Of a stretch of 24,000 nucleotides of DNA, positions 1-10,327 are shown one piece after another (within the stretch, counting starts at the first letter, position 1; the number at the start of each line of letters is the position of its first letter). A model generated the notes under the pieces. That model was given only the letters and a program-made list of their open reading frames with translations, ran no database searches and was not told where the DNA came from. The DNA comes from Gracilimonas amylolytica. Its GTDB lineage: Bacteria; Bacteroidota; Rhodothermia; Balneolales; Balneolaceae. Position numbers and translations under genes: made by a program. Location: NCBI RefSeq assembly GCF_002911695.1, contig NZ_PQBS01000019.1:10002-34001 (forward strand), in the 5' to 3' direction.

Positions 1-66
1 GAAGAACTGAAGGAAGCCGGAGCATCTGATATCGTGATGTTGCCGATCGAAAGTATGATCCTATAG
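1..66 (+). CDS. hisG: ATP phosphoribosyltransferase, C-terminal fragment (5' end lies outside the window)
   Basis: Frame 1 reads EELKEAGASDIVMLPIESMIL then TAG. This resembles the conserved long-form HisG C-terminus (..LKALGAS.ILVLPIEKM..). It sits directly upstream of hisD, as in hisGDCBH operons. Confidence 0.75.
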   Translation, partial: EELKEAGASDIVMLPIESMIL

Positions 67-89
67 AACATTGAACAAGGAATATTGAA
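62..89 (+). repeat. Degenerate heptad tract TATAGAA CATTGAA CAAGGAA TATTGAA overlapping the hisG stop codon
   Basis: Four consecutive 7-nt units each end in GAA. The hisG TAG (64-66) lies in the first unit. The tract contains the 13-nt motif AAGGAATATTGAA (77-89), which recurs exactly at 1485-1497. Confidence 0.6.
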
Positions 90-152
90 CCTGCCTCGCC
101 GGCAGGCAGGTATCGAAGTATTCGAAACTCGTTCCGTCGCTTCGCTACGGAA
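90..152 (+). other. Three consecutive short hairpins in the hisG-hisD spacer
   Basis: The hairpins are CCTGCC(90-95)/GGCAGG(101-106), TCGAA(113-117)/TTCGA(121-125) and TTCCGT(132-137)/ACGGAA(147-152). None is followed by a T-run. Confidence 0.4.
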
Positions 153-191: not shown

Positions 192-1478
192 ATGAAAAAA
201 TACAACTATTCTGAATTATCACCGGAAGAGATCAGAGAGCTGCTGAAGCGGCCAAAAATTGATTTTAGCTCCATATTCCAAACGGTTCAACCCATAATTG
301 AAGCTGTTGAAGAAGAGGGCGATTCTGCCGTGATCCGATATACGGAGCAATTTGATGGTGTGAAACTGAATGAGGTCACGTTGGATCCAAATGATGTTAA
401 GGTTCAGATAGACGCCTCGGTCAAAGAGGCCATAGATATTGCGTTCAGTAATATTTCCCAATTTCATAGGGCCCAGCAGGCACCGGACCTGCATGTGGAA
501 ACCATGCCGGGTGTGCGGTGCTCAAAAGTGAGTCGCCCGATCCAACGTGTTGGACTGTATATTCCCGGTGGAACCGCCGTTCTGCCTTCCACGGCGATGA
601 TGCTGGCTATTCCTGCCATGATCGCGGGTTGCACAACAAAAGTGTTAGCAACACCGCCCAAGAAAGATGGAAGTGTGGCACCGGAGATCATTTACATTGC
701 CCAGAAAGCCGGGATCAATACGATACTTTTAGCCGGTGGTGCCCAGGCTGTGGCAGCATTGGCTGTGGGAACCGAAAGTGTGCCCAAAGTGGACAAGATC
801 TTTGGGCCGGGAAATCAATATGTGACAGCGGCGAAAATGATCCTTCAAAATTCGGAGGCTCAGATCAGTATTGACATGCCGGCCGGGCCTTCTGAAGTTC
901 TGGTCATTGCCGATGCTGAAGCCAATCCTGCTTATGTTGCAGCCGACTTGCTGTCTCAGGCAGAACACGGAAGTGACAGTCAGGTAGTTTTGGTAGCCAC
1001 TGAAGATTTTGACATGAATGAATTGGAGCATGAACTAAAAACCCAACTCAACGAGCTTCCCCGAAAAGAAATGGCAACCGGGGCTTTGGATAACAGTTTC
1101 AGCCTTGTGGTGAAGTCGCTTGATGAGGCTTTTGAGTTTTCAAATCAGTATGCGCCCGAGCATTTAATTGTGAATGTGAAAGAAGCTGAATCGTATGTGG
1201 ATGAGATCATCAATGCGGGGTCGGTCTTCCTGGGACAGTTGACCCCGGAAAGTGTGGGGGATTATGCTTCCGGCACTAATCACACATTGCCAACTTATGG
1301 GTATGCCCGCATGTACAGCGGGGTGAATCTGGCCGCTTTTCAGAAATCAGTGACCATGCAATCTCTTACAGAAGAAGGGTTGAAAAATGTGGGTCCTGCA
1401 GTGGAAATACTGGCGGAATTAGAAGAACTTCAGGCGCATAAAAATGCCGTCAGCCTTCGGTTGAAGAATATCGAATAG
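192..1478 (+). CDS. hisD: Histidinol dehydrogenase
   Basis: The 428-aa ORF shows HisD hallmarks: [40 protein letters not shown] and AHKNAV near the C-terminus. It is in an operon with hisG and hisC. Confidence 0.95.
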
Positions 1479-1507
1479 TGAATAAAGGAATATTGAATTT
1501 GAAGTTG
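1463..1507 (+). repeat. Degenerate GAA-phased heptad tract spanning the hisD stop codon
   Basis: The sequence reads GAAGAAT atc GAATAGT GAATAAA g GAATATT GAATTT GAAGTTG. The hisD TAG (1476-1478) lies inside the unit GAATAGT. The tract includes the exact 13-mer AAGGAATATTGAA (1485-1497). Confidence 0.5.
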
Positions 1508-4495: not shown

Positions 4496-5254
4496 ATGAT
4501 ACTATCCAAATCCAAAGCCTGTTTACTTTCACTGTTTTTACTGCTTCTTTCGGGAACAGTTTTGGCACAGAATGCATCCGAGATCGTGAAGAAAATGGAT
4601 GAAAAAATGCGGGGGGAATCGCTGGAAGCCGAGGTTACCATGACTATTGTCAGGCCGGATTGGAGTCGGGAAGTATCCATGAAGAGCTGGAGTCGCGGTT
4701 CAGAATACTCAATGATCTTGATCACAGCCCCTGCCCGCGATAGGGGTACCGCTTTTCTTAAACGAGGTAACGAAATTTGGAACTGGATCCCGAATGTGGG
4801 AAGAACCATAAAAATGCCACCATCAATGATGATGCAGTCATGGATGGGCTCTGATTTCACCAATGATGACCTGGTTCGTGAATCGTCTGCTGTGACAGAT
4901 TATGAGCATGAACTGGTTGGGGAAGAAACGATTCAGGGGTACGAGTGCTATAAGATCGAAATGACCCCCAAACCGGATGCCCCGGTTGTATGGACGAGAG
5001 TGGATGTGTGGATCTCAAAGGAAGAATACATCGAATTAAGAGCAGAGTTTTATGATGAATTCGGGGAATTGATCAATGTGATGAATGGCATGGATGTGAA
5101 GGATTTTAACGGGCGGCAGATACCCTCACGCATGGAAATGATCCCAATGGATAAAGAAGGCCATATGACAATACTTGAATACAGATCTATGGAATTCAAT
5201 GAAAACATCTCTGAAAGATTCTTTAGCGTGCAGAATATGAGAAGAGTTCAGTGA
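4496..5254 (+). CDS. LolA-like outer-membrane lipoprotein-sorting protein (secreted)
   Basis: The 252-aa ORF has a signal peptide (LLLLSGTVLAQ) followed by the pattern typical of the LolA_like family: W.W.P....I......Q.WMGSDFTNDDL, CYKIEM.PK, and a C-terminal FS...M.R. Confidence 0.75.
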   Translation: MILSKSKACLLSLFLLLLSGTVLAQNASEIVKKMDEKMRGESLEAEVTMTIVRPDWSREVSMKSWSRGSEYSMILITAPARDRGTAFLKRGNEIWNWIPNVGRTIKMPPSMMMQSWMGSDFTNDDLVRESSAVTDYEHELVGEETIQGYECYKIEMTPKPDAPVVWTRVDVWISKEEYIELRAEFYDEFGELINVMNGMDVKDFNGRQIPSRMEMIPMDKEGHMTILEYRSMEFNENISERFFSVQNMRRVQ

Positions 5255-5283
5255 TCAGTTATCAGTGAACAGTGATCAGTACC
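5249..5283 (+). repeat. Heptamer tract T1: CAGTGAT CAGTTAT CAGTGAA CAGTGAT CAGTACC
   Basis: Five tandem 7-nt units share CAGT and an A at position 6. The first unit encodes the last codon (CAG) and the TGA stop (5252-5254) of the LolA-like gene. Confidence 0.9.
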
Positions 5284-5328
5284 CAAAGTATATTATAACT
5301 TGATTGTTGAATCCAGTTCGGCCAGCTT

Positions 5329-5398
5329 CTGCTAACTGCTAACTGCTAACTGCTAACTGCTAACTGCTAACTGCTAACTGCTAACTGCTAACTGCTAA
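5329..5398 (-). repeat. Heptamer tract T2: perfect (CTGCTAA)x10, which is (CAGTTAG)n on the minus strand
   Basis: Ten exact tandem copies were counted base by base (5329-5335 through 5392-5398). The tract is the reverse-complement orientation of T1. It provides the last codons and the TAG stop (5388-5390) of the minus-strand four-helix-bundle ORF. Confidence 0.95.
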
Positions 5399-5753
5399 TC
5401 CTAGTCGTTTTTAATATGGAAAATAGAATTCTGCAAAGTTCATCTGCATCGTCATGCATACTATTAAACGTCTTAGAATTTATAAAATCAGTATCATACA
5501 ATAGGTTTAGCCAATACTTTGTTTCTAAAGATTCTTTGTATGCAATGGAAATTTTAGATGAAAAATCAGCTTTTGAAATGGCACCATTGGCTTCAGATAT
5601 ATTTGCGCCAATACTGGTTCCACATCGAAGTAACTGTTTTGAAAGCATAAATTAACGTTATTCTTTACTTAAGAATTGATATCCTTTAACAACCCGAATT
5701 GCAAATGCATATGCTTTTTTAGAATTAATGATGGATTACATTGTAAGAGCCAT
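5388..5753 (-). pseudogene. Four-helix-bundle protein gene (23S rRNA-intervening-sequence protein / Avd-like family) interrupted by three in-frame TAA codons
   Basis: The remaining 86-aa ORF (5388-5648) reads LSKQLLRCGTSIGANISEA..SKADF..KISIAYKESLETKYWLNLL, the core of this family. The same frame upstream reads MALTM*SIINSKKAYAFAIRVVKGYQFLSKE*R*F and then that ORF, which is the expected N-terminal helix. It is broken by TAA codons at 5736-5738, 5658-5660 and 5652-5654. The region is visibly more AT-rich than its neighbours. Confidence 0.7.
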
Positions 5754-5796
5754 TAAATCCAAAATCCTTACAGAATTTTTTAAAACATATGTAAAA

Positions 5797-5831
5797 CTGT
5801 TTACTGATCACTGTTAACTGCTCACTGAAAA
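5797..5831 (-). repeat. Heptamer tract T3: CTGTTTA CTGATCA CTGTTAA CTGCTCA CTGAAAA (minus strand: CAGTGAG CAGTTAA CAGTGAT CAGTAAA CAGTTTT)
   Basis: Five 7-nt units are in the same phase and orientation as T2 and inverted relative to T1. The tract ends 6 nt before the ATG of the first FtsX permease gene. Confidence 0.85.
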
Positions 5832-5837
5832 ACGAAC

Positions 5838-7067
5838 ATGTTATATCTAAAATTAGCCTGGCGGAATATCTGGCGGAATAAGAGGCGCACGTTCATAACG
5901 ATGCTATCAATTATTGTGGCCGTCATGCTCTCGTCAGTTATGAGGACGATGAACGAAGGTTCCTATGAGCAGATGATCGAAAATACGGTCGGCATCTTTA
6001 CCGGTTATGTACAAATACATCAAAAAGGGTACTGGGACGACAAGACACTCGAAAACACGTTGGTTTCTTCAGACACACTGTTCCAGATCATTGCCCAAAC
6101 TCCCGGCATTACAAAAGCAGTTCCAAGAATTGAATCCTACGCTTTGGTAGCAGGAGAGAACCAAAGCCGAGCCGCTATGGTCATCGGCATAGATCCTGAA
6201 AAAGAAAGGTCTTTAAGTGATCCTCAAAACCGGATCGTTACAGGTTCCTATTTTGAAGATTTAAATGAGCGATCGGTCCTTTTGGGAACCGACTTGGTGC
6301 AGAGACTTGAGCTACAGGTAGGAGACAGCCTTGTGATGATCGGGCAGGGATTCAGAGGACAAAGCGCAGCCGGATTATACGAAGTGAAAGGAACCGTGCG
6401 GTTTCCAAATCCGGAAATGAATAAAAGCCTGGTTATGATGCCACTCGGAACGGCTCAGTTCTTTTTAGCCGCTCCCGACAGACTTACTGGGATCTCACTT
6501 ATTATTGAGGATTCTGATGACGCAGAATCGGTTACAAAGATACTATCGGGTTATTTATCGAGCGAGGATTATGAGGTCATGGACTGGAAGGAACTGATGC
6601 CTGAGTTGGTTCAGGCCATTGAGTCGGATCGGGGCAGTGGGTTAATCATTATCATGATATTGTATGTGGTTGTTGGTTTTGGAATACTGGGAACCGTTCT
6701 CATGATGATCACGGAACGCACTTACGAATTCGGTGTGATGATATCGGTAGGAACATCAAGGTTTGCAATTGCGATGATGCTGGCCTTTGAGGTCTTACTC
6801 ATGGCCATGGCAGGGTCACTCGTTGGTATTGTTGCCTCCTATCCAATTTCATACTACTTCCACATAAATCCGATCCGTTTGTCAGACAGTGGAGACATGG
6901 CACAGGTTATTGAGACATTCGGTATGGAACCGGTCCTTCAGTTTTCACTTGAACCTTCACTATTCTACTCTCAGGCCATCATCATTTTTGTGATCACCCT
7001 GATCTTTTGCCTCATACCTATTCTTAAAGCCAGTCGGTTGAATCCTGTTAAAGCGATGAGGTCCTGA
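5838..7067 (+). CDS. ABC transporter permease, FtsX/MacB-LolCE type
   Basis: The 409-aa ORF has an N-terminal L.LAWRNIWRNKRRT motif and TM1, a ~230-aa periplasmic domain, then three C-terminal TM helices. It ends with ..A.RL.PV.AMR, as FtsX-family permeases do. Confidence 0.9.
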   Translation: MLYLKLAWRNIWRNKRRTFITMLSIIVAVMLSSVMRTMNEGSYEQMIENTVGIFTGYVQIHQKGYWDDKTLENTLVSSDTLFQIIAQTPGITKAVPRIESYALVAGENQSRAAMVIGIDPEKERSLSDPQNRIVTGSYFEDLNERSVLLGTDLVQRLELQVGDSLVMIGQGFRGQSAAGLYEVKGTVRFPNPEMNKSLVMMPLGTAQFFLAAPDRLTGISLIIEDSDDAESVTKILSGYLSSEDYEVMDWKELMPELVQAIESDRGSGLIIIMILYVVVGFGILGTVLMMITERTYEFGVMISVGTSRFAIAMMLAFEVLLMAMAGSLVGIVASYPISYYFHINPIRLSDSGDMAQVIETFGMEPVLQFSLEPSLFYSQAIIIFVITLIFCLIPILKASRLNPVKAMRS

Positions 7068-7068
7068 T

Positions 7069-8301
7069 ATGCTGAAATATATCCTGAAACTTGGCTGGAA
7101 GAATGTCTGGAGAAATCCCACACGAAGTGGTGTAGTGATCATCACCGTGCTGCTTGGAACCTGGGCCGGTATCTTTGCCACCGGTTTTTTTAATGGAATG
7201 CTGAATGATTATATCAAGGGACAGATAAATTTGACGGTGGGTCATGTTCAGATCATGTATCCGGAGTTTGAAGATCTATACAATCCGAATTATGCCATCC
7301 CGAATGCTGAGAACCTAATAAGAACACTGCAGGTAAACCCGGATGTGGATGAGGTATCGGGTAAAAGTGTGGCAACCGGACTGGCGCAAAGTGCGCGAAA
7401 CAGTTTTGGGGTCACAATATGGGGTATGGATATTGAGAATGACACCTCTGTTTCGGTGCGTTCCATTAAAGGGTATCTGGAAGAGGGAGACTTTCCGGAA
7501 GCTGAAAATCGAAATCAGATACTGATTGGAGATGACTTGGCCGAAAGACTTGGCCTGGAGTTGCGCTCCCGAATGGTATTAAGTTTTCAGGATGTAAGTG
7601 GAGACCTCACGGCTGGTGCGTTCCGGGTAGCCGGCATTTTTGACAGTTTTGATAGCCGGTTTGATGAGAACTTCGTGGTGGTCAATAAAGCCGATCTGAA
7701 CCGTATTTTAGGAGGGAAAAACTTAACCCATAACATCCGTATTGATACAGACGATCTGATGACAGCCGGTGTACTTGCTGAACAGCTTCAGGATTCGAAT
7801 CCGGACCTTGAGGTGAAAAGCTGGAGGGAGATCGCCCCGGATTTAAGGTATGTTTTTGATATGCAGGATCTGTCCCTGTATTTGGTGATGATCATAATCA
7901 TCATTGGTCTGATCTTTAGCATCATCAATACTATGCTGATGGCCGTGATGGAGCGAACCCGCGAACTTGGTATGCTGCGTGCTATTGGTATGAATAAAAG
8001 CCGAACCTTTAGTATGGTCATGCTTGAGACGGTGTTCCTGACCCTGGTTGGATCACCGGTAGGTTTGCTTCTCGGTTGGTTAACGATCACATATTTTGGG
8101 GCTAGCGGGATCGACCTCAGTGCTTTTTCTGAGGGACTGGAAGGATGGGGTTTTACAACCATGATCTATCCATCACTGGCTTTGAAATACTATTTGAATA
8201 TTGTGCTTTTTGTGGCTGTAGCAGCCTTGATCTCGGCACTGTATCCGGCCTGGCGGGCACTTCAATTGAGACCTGTTGAAGCAATACGAAAATTTAACTA
8301 A
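7069..8301 (+). CDS. ABC transporter permease, FtsX/MacB-LolCE type (second copy)
   Basis: The 410-aa ORF has the same architecture (LGWKNVWRNPTRS, MERTRELGMLRAIGM, ..A.RALQLRPVEAIR). Its ATG is 1 nt after the stop of the preceding gene. Confidence 0.9.
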   Translation: MLKYILKLGWKNVWRNPTRSGVVIITVLLGTWAGIFATGFFNGMLNDYIKGQINLTVGHVQIMYPEFEDLYNPNYAIPNAENLIRTLQVNPDVDEVSGKSVATGLAQSARNSFGVTIWGMDIENDTSVSVRSIKGYLEEGDFPEAENRNQILIGDDLAERLGLELRSRMVLSFQDVSGDLTAGAFRVAGIFDSFDSRFDENFVVVNKADLNRILGGKNLTHNIRIDTDDLMTAGVLAEQLQDSNPDLEVKSWREIAPDLRYVFDMQDLSLYLVMIIIIIGLIFSIINTMLMAVMERTRELGMLRAIGMNKSRTFSMVMLETVFLTLVGSPVGLLLGWLTITYFGASGIDLSAFSEGLEGWGFTTMIYPSLALKYYLNIVLFVAVAALISALYPAWRALQLRPVEAIRKFN

Positions 8302-8341
8302 AGGTTAGAGATGTTTAAACGGATGTTTATAGTGAAATTTA

Positions 8342-9064
8342 ATGCCAACACAGAACGGAAATAACATGTCTGTAATACGAACAGAAGGGTTGACCAAAGT
8401 ATATAATCCGGATCAGGTACCGGTTCATGCCCTGAACGGTGTGGATCTTACCATTGAAAAAGGTGAATTCACTGCCATTGTCGGCCCATCCGGTTCAGGT
8501 AAAACCACCCTATTGAATATCATTGGTGGCCTGGATGAACCGACCGGGGGGAAAGCCTTTATCAGAGGGACAGACATCAGCACCCTTTCTGACCGTGAGT
8601 TGATCAACTTCAGGCTCAATCATATTGGGTTTGTATTTCAATCCTTTAATTTGATCCCGGTTCTTACTGCCCTCGAGAATGTGTCGTTCATCATGCAGAT
8701 GCAGGGAAGGCCGGCAAAAGAATGCCGTGAAAAAAGTATAGAGCTTTTAGAGGAAGTTGGTCTTAAAGACAAGATCAATAAACGTCCCTCAGAATTATCA
8801 GGAGGACAGCAGCAGAGGGTAGCAGTGGCCAGGGCTTTGGCATCCAAACCCGATTTTGTCCTGGCTGATGAACCGACGGCCAATCTTGATTCTGTTTCCA
8901 CAGCCGAATTACTGGATATGATGGCGGAATTGAATGAGGTGGAGGATATGACGTTCATATTTTCGACTCATGACCAAAGGGTGATCGATAGAGCGAGGCG
9001 GGTCATTACACTTGTGGATGGGAAAATTGATTCGGATGAAGAGAGAACAGTGGACAGTGGATAG
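8342..9064 (+). CDS. ABC transporter ATP-binding protein (LolD/MacB-type)
   Basis: It has Walker A GPSGSGKTT, a Q-loop, the signature LSGGQQQRVAVARAL, Walker B FVLADEPT and an H-loop STHD. The true start may be the internal ATG at 8366 (MSVIRTEGLTKVY). Confidence 0.95.
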   Translation: MPTQNGNNMSVIRTEGLTKVYNPDQVPVHALNGVDLTIEKGEFTAIVGPSGSGKTTLLNIIGGLDEPTGGKAFIRGTDISTLSDRELINFRLNHIGFVFQSFNLIPVLTALENVSFIMQMQGRPAKECREKSIELLEEVGLKDKINKRPSELSGGQQQRVAVARALASKPDFVLADEPTANLDSVSTAELLDMMAELNEVEDMTFIFSTHDQRVIDRARRVITLVDGKIDSDEERTVDSG

Positions 9065-9110
9065 TAAACAGTAAACAGTAAACAGTAAGCAGTGATCAGT
9101 GTTTAGTTTG
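9048..9110 (+). repeat. Heptamer tract T4: CAGTGGA CAGTGGA TAGTAAA CAGTAAA CAGTAAA CAGTAAG CAGTGAT CAGTGTT TAGTTTG
   Basis: Nine 7-nt units are in the same orientation as T1. Units 1-3 encode the last residues (..VDSG) and the TAG stop (9062-9064) of the ABC ATPase. Confidence 0.9.
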
Positions 9111-9121
9111 AATATGGAATT

Positions 9122-10327
9122 ATGAACGAACATATTTTTAAATATGAAGTAGGAGCTTATGAAGTAACGTCGAGGCGTTTTGGATTTGGCTTAGTTATTC
9201 TGATTCTGATTTTGCTGGTTCCAACAACCATTCAGTCCCAAAATATTGAGGCTGACCTCAGAGGATACGTGAAAGAGCTCGGTGTTTTTAGCCTGAGCAA
9301 TGATCTTGGAACACTAAGGTACGATAACATCCTGCATCATCGCATTGAAAGCCGTTTTGGCCTGGGGGAAAAATTTGAGATCAGGGCAGATGCCAGAACA
9401 CGCCTCTTTAACGGCTGGACGGTCAATAATTCACCGGGTTATGGTGACTTTCTATCCAACGATCGCGGATACTTCGATCTGAGTCACACCTGGATCGATA
9501 CGGACAACACCGTGTTAAATACCGCCATTGATCGCCTGCACGTATCTTATATCAACGGACCGTGGGAACTGCATGCAGGTCGCCAGCGGATCAACTGGGG
9601 AAAGACCATGGTGTGGAATCCCAACGACCTGTTCAACGCCTACGCCTATCTCGATTTTGATTATGAAGAGCGTCCGGGTACAGATGCTTTTTATGCATCT
9701 TATTCGTGGAGTTATGCATCCAGTGTGGAGGCCGGTTACCGTTTGGGGAATGGCATTGATGAGTCGGTTATAGCCGGAATGGTCCGCGGAAATGCCGGAG
9801 AGTATGATCTGCAATTCATTGTAGGAAATTATTTTGAAGAACTGGCCGTAGGAGCCGGATGGAGCGGATATCTTAAGAATGCAGGATTCAGGGGTGAGTT
9901 CACGTATTTTCACCCCAGAGATAATTTCTTTGATGAAACCGGACATATCACCTCCACGGTAGGAGCAGATTATATGTTTCAGAATGGGGTATATGGCTCT
10001 GCCGAATTATTGTATAACGGGGGATGGAGCCGATCCCTGAATCCGGTGGCACAGTTAACCAGACCGCCCAGTGCATCCGATCTTTTTATTGCGGAAACAG
10101 GGTACTTCCTGAATGGAGCCTATCAGGTAAATCCTTTAACAAGTATTTCCGGTGGAATTATGGGGAGCTTTGATCGGAAGATGATCATCCTGATCCCCCA
10201 GTTTACCCGCTCCCTTTCCGAGAATATCGATCTTTTGATCCTGGCTCAGCTTCTAAAGGGGGCCGTCTTTACTGATCTGACCGATACCCCGAACGGCATT
10301 TACTTTAGGTTAAAGTGGTCCTATTAA
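9122..10327 (+). CDS. Hypothetical outer-membrane beta-barrel protein
   Basis: The 401-aa ORF has an N-terminal hydrophobic signal-like segment (GLVILILILLVPTTIQSQ). The sequence is rich in Gly, Tyr and Asn with alternating amphipathic stretches. The C-terminus YFRLKWSY ends in an aromatic residue, as in BAM substrates. No family was recognised with confidence. Confidence 0.5.
   Translation: MNEHIFKYEVGAYEVTSRRFGFGLVILILILLVPTTIQSQNIEADLRGYVKELGVFSLSNDLGTLRYDNILHHRIESRFGLGEKFEIRADARTRLFNGWTVNNSPGYGDFLSNDRGYFDLSHTWIDTDNTVLNTAIDRLHVSYINGPWELHAGRQRINWGKTMVWNPNDLFNAYAYLDFDYEERPGTDAFYASYSWSYASSVEAGYRLGNGIDESVIAGMVRGNAGEYDLQFIVGNYFEELAVGAGWSGYLKNAGFRGEFTYFHPRDNFFDETGHITSTVGADYMFQNGVYGSAELLYNGGWSRSLNPVAQLTRPPSASDLFIAETGYFLNGAYQVNPLTSISGGIMGSFDRKMIILIPQFTRSLSENIDLLILAQLLKGAVFTDLTDTPNGIYFRLKWSY

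Follow-up and report, generated by a model that had tools for sequence, protein, structure and literature searches.

Why does the gene of an ATP-binding cassette (ABC) ATPase end within a run of tandem 7-nt repeats, and what does such a run do to the protein and its stop codon? The question is raised by a 24,000-nt stretch of Gracilimonas amylolytica DNA (hereafter, the window). It lies on contig C19 of a genome of 3.15 Mb with 43.7% G+C, the nearest named relatives of which are Gracilimonas species and metagenome-assembled genomes of the Balneolaceae. Here, a MacB/LolD-type ATPase gene runs into a tract of degenerate heptads, designated T4. Comparison with related genomes indicated that the tail and stop codon of this ATPase are supplied by the repeat, and a genome-wide analysis placed heptamer tracts at gene ends more often than expected by chance.

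The ATPase gene ends inside a heptanucleotide tract

The units of T4 are, in order, CAGTGGA, CAGTGGA, TAGTAAA, CAGTAAA, CAGTAAA, CAGTAAG, CAGTGAT, CAGTGTT and TAGTTTG. The ATPase open reading frame (ORF) enters the tract by two units before stopping, and T4 supplies its last four to five codons together with the TAG at 9062-9064, giving a protein that ends in RTVDSG. The original prediction, made from the letters of the window, had assigned the tail TVDSG and the stop codon to the tract, and both can be read directly from the units. T4 also fills the 57-nt spacer between the ATPase and the next gene, up to approximately 11 nt before the ATG at 9122. Five YAGT cores at 7-nt spacing were matched 12 times in the window, compared to 0 matches in 100 dinucleotide shuffles. 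With several 7-nt units arranged head to tail, T4 has the form of a heptanucleotide long simple sequence repeat (SSR).

On the plus strand, the ATPase frame is closed by stop codons beginning at 9062 and 9065, frame +1 by one at 9072 and frame +2 by one at 9079, so that none of the three frames stays open for more than 20 nt. On the minus strand, one frame is open across the entire tract. The earlier description of T4 as a frame-independent stop pad is therefore correct for the plus strand, but the closure is the mere arithmetic of a 7-nt unit that contains a stop triplet.

Tail and stop codon vary between tract-bearing relatives

The junction between the ATPase and the downstream gene was gathered from 29 related genomes, which are non-independent samples, and the ATPase C-termini were compared. 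In five Gracilimonas genomes (group B) and in most other families of the order, the protein ends in DSDEQR, DSDEKRG or similar. The outgroup ATPases follow the pattern DSDE(E/Q/K)R(G), with a stop codon that overlaps or nearly touches the next ATG. The spacer measures −4 to 29 nt in the outgroups and group B, and a T4-type tract is absent from the outgroup orthologues. Within the subclade of the window, the heptad tract follows directly after the shared DEER codons, and the ATPase frame reads into it. Almost every tract-bearing relative has a tail of its own, namely TVDSG in the window, TVDSKH in its closest relative (G024, 93% DNA identity to the window), and TVGNK, EKGDSEQ, TPNNEQGTSN, TEKNIEH and others elsewhere. 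Comparison with tract-free orthologues had been proposed along with the original prediction, and these were found to end five residues earlier and to be devoid of the window tail. The outcome is thus contrary to the identical C-termini that had been named in advance as a refutation. Because the tails vary among tract-bearing relatives and the outgroups stop at the DEER-type end, the ATPase tail and stop are repeat-encoded and lineage-specific, and they are apparently dispensable.

Alignment of the window with G024 showed a clean 28-nt indel of four units and two substitutions within the tract, which amounts to length variation by whole units between close relatives (G000 against G024). Such an indel bears the signature of slippage or in-register unequal exchange. 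Among the orthologues, changes in unit number alter only the C-terminal tail and the length of the spacer. A tract was kept at the ATPase junction in all genomes of groups A and W while its sequence turned over. The cultured strain G. tropica DSM 19535 also has a tract there.

The same spacer was found to hold a further element in many Gracilimonas relatives, the whalefall-1 RNA (Rfam RF01762, 43-55 bits compared to a gathering score of 37). It occurs at L003 1442-1497, L005 1442-1497, L006 2650-2705, L008 2650-2705 and L009 1422-1476, with weaker copies nearby on both strands, and its stems vary between species with apparent compensatory changes. The window spacer holds only T4.

Heptamer tracts are enriched at stop codons

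For the genome-wide statistics, 88% of the genome was assigned to 2,659 ORF-based genes, which represent our own ORF calls and not a curated annotation. A tract was scored wherever a 4-mer core returned at regular intervals. At a minimum of four units, period 7 yielded 32 tracts, compared to 0-11 for periods 5, 6 and 8-12; at a minimum of three units, 136 tracts were found, compared to 72 in shuffles. Stop codons were overlapped, or approached to within 5 nt, by 32 of the 84 non-coding period-7 tracts. Random placement in the same spacer (± 20 nt) predicted 16.2 ± 3.0, and 0 of 1,000 simulations reached 32. The proposed association between tracts and gene ends was thus borne out across the genome. 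Enrichment was also seen for tracts of at least four units (13/25 near a stop, 5.7 expected) and when tracts adjoining PF05635 genes were left aside (26/76, 13.2 expected). Start codons were depleted of tracts (8 vs. 14.5 expected), and the control periods 5, 8, 10 and 11 showed no enrichment at stop codons in the same genome-wide test.

Tracts of the CAGT class that lie at most 20 nt after a stop codon read in sense relative to that gene in nine cases and antisense in one, and two tracts at most 10 nt before a start codon read ACTG in sense. The CAGT core was found at at least 17 loci of the genome and also in many related genomes. The heptads combine a conserved 4-nt core with 3 variable nucleotides: within tracts, 104 of 126 mismatches fell in three of the seven positions, compared to 91.7 ± 3.4, a comparison that is approximate owing to inherited units. 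As a separate observation, the control pattern TGACnnn at period 7 is far commoner than CAGTnnn in some relatives (among G012, G036, G007 and G019), so that each genome appears to have its own favoured heptads.

A tolerated repeat at a gene boundary

With moderate confidence, T4 is interpreted as a tolerated, hypermutable heptanucleotide tandem repeat at a gene boundary, of the kind known as short tandemly repeated repetitive (STRR) sequences, long SSRs or TAACTGA-like repeats. The tract would gain and lose length through slipped-strand mispairing or unequal recombination. The last codons of a gene, together with its stop, may serve as the seed of a tract, since the repeat unit found there is similar to the codons with which the gene itself ends (CAG TGA for the LolA-like gene, AAT ATC GAA TAG for hisD and GAA CAG in the ATPase clade). 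In the Gracilimonas subclade that has the tract, the ATPase frame reads on beyond its old end (DEER) until the first in-frame stop triplet of the repeat, so that tail and stop differ between species. Persistence at 3′ ends can be understood from the cost, which would be at most a few C-terminal residues; because a 7-nt unit shifts the reading frame of any gene that it enters and interferes with nearby promoters and start sites, gene ends are where tracts would survive. Three-frame closure would arise as a by-product of copying a stop-bearing unit, with the consequence that unit gain or loss would never give a long read-through.

Several observations weigh against this interpretation. The clustering of mismatches in three of seven positions, which leaves a 4-nt core, is unlike the behavior of a neutral decaying microsatellite and would be expected of a bound protein or a sequence-specific process. 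The CAGT core, with its many loci and genomes, is more uniform than independent local seeding predicts, and the persistence of the tract through long divergence could reflect selection for its presence. Furthermore, tracts lie exactly at the stop more often than random placement in the same spacer would yield, and a tolerance filter explains only part of this excess. Finally, the gene models behind these numbers are ORF calls and not curated annotation.

Competing explanations

A function at the RNA level would account for part of these observations, although we consider it unlikely. T4 would then be an unstructured, A-rich YAGU array with 7-nt spacing, bound by an oligomeric or cooperative single-strand-binding protein such as S1, Csp or a TRAP- or HutP-like ring. 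Binding would uncouple or tune downstream translation, or alter mRNA stability, and would replace the coupling by ATGA overlap in the outgroups. The conserved 4-nt core with its variable 3-nt spacer, the 9-to-1 strand bias relative to the gene and the persistence of the junction tract across many species despite sequence turnover speak in favor of such an element, as does an unstructured T4 that fills the spacer almost to the next ATG. HutP recognises NAG triplets separated by 4 nt, i.e., with a period of 7, which counts in the same direction. An equivalent role was proposed for TAACTGA repeats upstream of start codons (MacGregor 2015, PMC4679880). However, the heptads differ widely between loci (CAGT, GAATAT, AGGTGTT, TTAGTGG and others) and between species at one junction, so that no single sequence-specific binder is favored. 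In addition, near relatives differ by four units, and no candidate binding protein was identified. A protein-binding or translation-spacing role is kept alive by the core, its recurrence and the persistence of the tract, at the same low level of probability.

We consider it even less likely that T4 is a solo arm, a footprint or a landing site of a mobile family of heptamer-armed hairpins and PF05635 cassettes. The arms of this family are inverted heptamer runs, and it includes T1 and T3 of the window (Table 1) and gene-less hairpins in relatives. Inverted heptad runs surround each of the genome's 10 PF05635 genes, T1 and T3 being such arms, and what lies at the junction between the LolA-like gene and the permease depends on the species: a cassette, a heptad hairpin without a gene, or neither. 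Like T1 and T3, T4 is of the CAGT class, with an ungapped identity to them of approximately 80% (80% over 25 nt to the reverse complement of T3, 79% to T1), while T1 and the reverse complement of T3 match at 84% ungapped. However, no inverted partner of T4 was found in its 57-nt spacer, and T4 lacks the two-arm form of a hairpin or cassette. None of the relatives compared has a PF05635 gene at the ATPase junction, and the unit-wise indel fits slippage better than insertion or excision. The counts of CAGT tracts and PF05635 genes in 41 genomes gave a rho of 0.28 (p 0.08) overall and −0.04 within the genus, and one genome has 35 CAGT pattern hits and no PF05635 gene. On these counts, an origin of solo tracts as a general by-product of PF05635 cassettes was not supported.

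Two narrower versions also lacked support. As specific partner arms around the ABC module, T3 and T4 are no more similar than T4 and T1, which is near class level. As a conserved T3/T4 hairpin, they would have to be inverted, whereas the equivalent tracts in group A genomes are direct.

The idea of a shared 3′-end or termination signal, which the original prediction had raised, was not supported for T4. As a terminator or structured RNA, T4 was rejected on a fold z-score of −0.64 (no significant structure), the lack of a terminator-like site (GC-rich stem-loop and U run) at 9040-9125 and an Rfam covariance-model search of the window that returned no hit at E ≤ 0.1. A transcription terminator or mRNA 3′-end processing signal common to many genes is therefore very improbable: tracts do sit near stops, and in Xanthomonas the starts or ends of transcripts fall within G-rich heptamer repeats more frequently than within control repeats (PMC4692102), but T4 lies within a conserved operon 11 nt before the next ATG, has neither a hairpin nor a stem with a U run, and the stem that an intrinsic terminator needs cannot arise from direct tracts standing alone.

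Other gene ends in the window

The features discussed here are summarized in Table 1. Several further genes had been predicted to end in heptad tracts, and direct reading agrees for most of them. The LolA-like ORF (4496-5254) ends with CAG TGA inside T1, the minus-strand PF05635 ORF ends with its TAG inside T2, the TAG of hisG is directly followed by GAA-phased heptads, and the hisD stop at 1476-1478 lies within GAATATC GAATAGT GAATAAA. The claim failed for hisC, whose stop (2710-2712) shows a weak resemblance of about two units and no convincing tract.

Table 1. Features of the window referred to in the text, with positions counted from its first nucleotide.
Feature	Position	Strand	Description
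hisG end	64-94	+	TAG at 64-66, then GAACATT GAACAAG GAATATT GAAC (four GAAYAnn heptads)
hisD end	1461-1503	+	GAATAnn heptads over last codons and TAG; HisD length native
T1	5248-5280	+	Five CAGTnnn heptads from last codon and stop (CAG TGA) of LolA-like gene; left arm of PF05635 cassette
T2	5329-5398	−	Perfect (TTAGCAG)10, read (CTGCTAA)10 on plus strand; last codons and TAG of PF05635 ORF inside
PF05635 ORF (23S_rRNA_IVP, four-helix-bundle)	5388-5648	−	Profile match
T3	5796-5831	+	Five ACTGnnn heptads ending a few nt before first permease ATG (5838); right cassette arm
ABC module	5838-9064	+	Three genes (two FtsX/MacB_PCD permeases and ATPase); phylogeny at odds with flanking LolA-like and downstream genes
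MacB/LolD-type ABC ATPase gene	8342-9064	+	Pfam ABC_tran, E 4.5e-36
T4	9048-9110	+	Nine degenerate YAGTnnn heptads
Downstream gene (401 aa)	9122-10327	+	Outer-membrane-barrel-like according to original prediction; no Pfam match; order-wide synteny with ATPase

The LolA-like protein has the same length throughout the order and ends in NMRRV(Q/N/E). HisD ends in RLK(N/D)(I/L)(E/Q/K) across the genus, and the end position of HisC is also constant. In these three proteins, resemblance to the repeat and co-variation with the tract are limited to the last one to three codons at most, and the LolA-like gene ends with CAG TGA in every case with a CAGT tract downstream. Some relatives extend HisD into the tract, ending for example in KNIEHSTSNKEH, and the tail of the PF05635 ORF inside the tract is RISS in the window compared to RINIK in G020. 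The earlier suggestion that tracts are hot-spots which rewrite gene 3′ ends gains real support from the ATPase tail differences, the 28-nt indel and the module junctions described below. Rewriting is less extensive at LolA-like, HisD and HisC, which have their native length.

Two genomes that are near-identical, also in their LolA-like proteins, differ at the end of this gene: G003 (L101) ends in RLE without a cassette and G019 (L102) in RIQ with a CAGT-armed cassette, the difference being confined to the last three codons. The cassette appears to bring along a gene end of its own, which is what allelic replacement by homologous recombination would predict. In G025 (L138), which belongs to another family of the order, the TGA of hisD is directly followed by approximately seven TGTCGGA units, and a different heptad at the hisD end of such a distant genome points to an order-wide gene-end habit.

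Perfect (TTAGCAG)n arrays of 9-10 copies occur at three loci of the genome, namely C19:15330-15399 (T2), C4:33002-33065 and C35:107588-107653, and two of the three share a similar AAG(C/G)TGGCCGA-type flank. Long arrays of this unit are also present in G005, G010, G016 and G019, and contigs of G024 end in such arrays.

The PF05635 cassette and other repeat systems

The PF05635 gene of the window (minus strand, 5388-5753) matches positions 7-105 of the family, and its full-length match is broken by two TAA codons; the copy in G020 is intact. The window gene is therefore probably a pseudogene. In G020 (L060, C1:54340-54960), a cassette occupies the same junction as 5248-5831 of the window, between similar CAGT and ACTG arms. 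Its interior, consisting of a promoter-like motif and the intact gene, is inverted relative to the window, which fits an inversion between the inverted arms or an independent insertion.

Upstream of most PF05635 genes, the motif TTTGTAAGG(A/G) is followed approximately 15-25 nt later by GCTCT(T/A)AC. Examples are found in the window (5690-5760, minus strand), on C39, C11, C5 and C40, and also at a Y1_Tnp gene (C27:164491-164560). The motif is not in Rfam and could be a promoter or an RNA element. Within the body of literature searched, nothing was found linking PF05635 to heptamers.

Two genes for Y1 transposases resembling REP-associated tyrosine transposases (RAYT; REP, repetitive extragenic palindromic) lie at C10:146500-147200 and C27:163700-164950 and are flanked by GC-rich, REP-like hairpins, e.g., CCGGCCTTCAGGCCGG. 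These constitute a second repeat system of the genome, unrelated to the heptads. A REP/RAYT link of the heptads was rejected, as the Y1_Tnp genes are flanked by GC hairpins and not by heptads.

Mosaic ancestry of the ABC module

The tracts also coincide with a change of ancestry along the operon, for which loci L001-L030 and L079-L108 were examined. For the LolA-like protein, identity to the window is 75-83% in group A and 62-64% in group B, and for the downstream gene 67-81% and 54-59%, respectively. Within the ABC module the order is reversed, with 52-55% in group A and 62-64% in group B for the N-terminal part of permease 1, 27-59% and 66-69% for the C-terminal part of permease 2, and 72-77% and 84-87% for the ATPase. 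In the trees, the window clade (G000, G024, G020 and G022) falls inside group A for both flanking genes and groups with group B for the three ABC genes. Approximately unbiased (AU) tests reject the opposite groupings with p-values from 3e-11 to 0.005, which are weakened by the groups having been named after the identity table was seen. The hisC and hisD trees place the window clade with the core of group A. The last ATPase codons (DEER T) and the following tract are of A type. Sliding-window identity to groups A and B within the ATPase differs by 0-13 points, and no sharp breakpoint was resolved at the DNA level.

From these trees, the simplest reading would be that a B-like ABC module replaced the native one by recombination. 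One junction of the module lies between the LolA-like stop and the start of the first permease, where T1, the cassette and T3 are located, and the other at the very end of the ATPase. The tracts mark the probable recombination breakpoints of the module and may promote them. However, the match between tracts and junctions is a coincidence that does not imply causation, as gene boundaries are natural sites for viable crossovers. The more far-reaching notion that heptamer tracts are portable homology patches, allowing the exchange of operon segments between diverged lineages, is speculative and in our view rather improbable. On this view, the B-type module would have taken the place of its native counterpart exactly between the T1-T3 region and T4, with the LolA-like and downstream genes remaining native. 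If true, Balneolales and other phyla rich in such tracts would possess, in their gene-end heptads, a general means of modular recombination or at least a general hot-spot for it. The coincidence at the module junctions is in any case a testable lead on whether repeats promote modular recombination.

Comparison with known heptamer repeats

Heptanucleotide repeats are also reported from heterocystous cyanobacteria, where the STRR sequences attributed to Mazel et al. 1990 are said to include units such as CCCCAGT and CAACAGT. They reportedly resemble the tracts described here as heptamers ending in CAGT with many intergenic copies per genome and an unproven function. By the same account, they differ in belonging to another phylum and in their more uniform units, and the rewriting of stop codons was apparently not their focus. 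The REP elements and bacterial interspersed mosaic elements (BIME) of Enterobacteria and Pseudomonas are also short repeats that colonise spacers just after stops within operons, as the heptads do here. Unlike the heptads, REPs are GC-rich imperfect palindromes mobilised by RAYT transposases.

Among published systems, the heptamer-armed PF05635 cassettes and the 23S rRNA intervening sequences with an S23p ORF (PMC4990558) have arms corresponding to T1 and T3, and T4 is of the same heptad class. T4 differs from them as a lone array of direct repeats that lacks both a second arm and a loop enclosing an ORF. Rehm et al. 2015 (PMC4692102) described intergenic heptameric SSRs in Xanthomonas (GGGAATC) and Nostoc (GGGGAYT) that lie near or overlap stop codons and vary in length and sequence between related species. 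As in the present case, these are tandem 7-nt units, over-represented in intergenic DNA, mostly kept between the same genes and extensively varying. In contrast, the units here are A/T-rich YAGTnnn heptads with a 4-nt core, so that a G-quadruplex is not applicable. Further differences are the lineage (Gracilimonas of the Balneolales), the variable C-terminal tail that is encoded and the coincidence with recombination junctions.

Direct repeats of TAACTGA were described in marine Beggiatoaceae, Cyanobacteria and five Bacteroidetes (MacGregor 2015, PMC4679880). For these, stops in all three frames in one orientation were already noted, and 13 ORF stops were overlapped by repeats. They share their intergenic position and their core with the tracts of the window (TAACTGA equals nnnACTG on the other strand), and T3 lies in the "forward" orientation a few nucleotides before a start codon, as do most BOGUAY sets. 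T4, however, is oriented the other way, with CAGT in sense, and adjoins a stop codon instead of a start codon. It is made up of degenerate units, and numerous other heptads are in use across the genome. An exact TAACTGA was found on neither strand of T4, which places the tract outside the TAACTGA family in the strict sense. In the summary of Mrazek 2007 given in PMC4679880, heptamers are the most abundant class of long SSRs, and polymerase slippage is proposed.

The statement that no such mechanism had been described, made for this lineage in the original prediction, can be maintained for Balneolales; a literature search found nothing on tandem repeats in Gracilimonas. The statement cannot be extended further, since Xanthomonas and Nostoc are known to have heptamer repeats that lie near or across stop codons (PMC4692102). 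Heptamer repeats of this class have been published from Xanthomonas, Nostoc, Beggiatoaceae and some Bacteroidetes, and T4 is a further member. The present case adds the lineage, the documented rewriting of a protein tail, the unit indel and the coincidence with module junctions.

The locus has practical consequences as well. C-terminal tails and stop positions beside such tracts are unstable and strain-specific, which matters for annotation, and assemblies break at them, as shown by the contigs of G024. More generally, one operon shows how a non-triplet repeat can repeatedly rewrite a protein tail and its stop codon, apparently without harming the protein. The conserved 4-nt core of these heptads bears on the long-standing question of why 7-nt repeats are common between bacterial genes.

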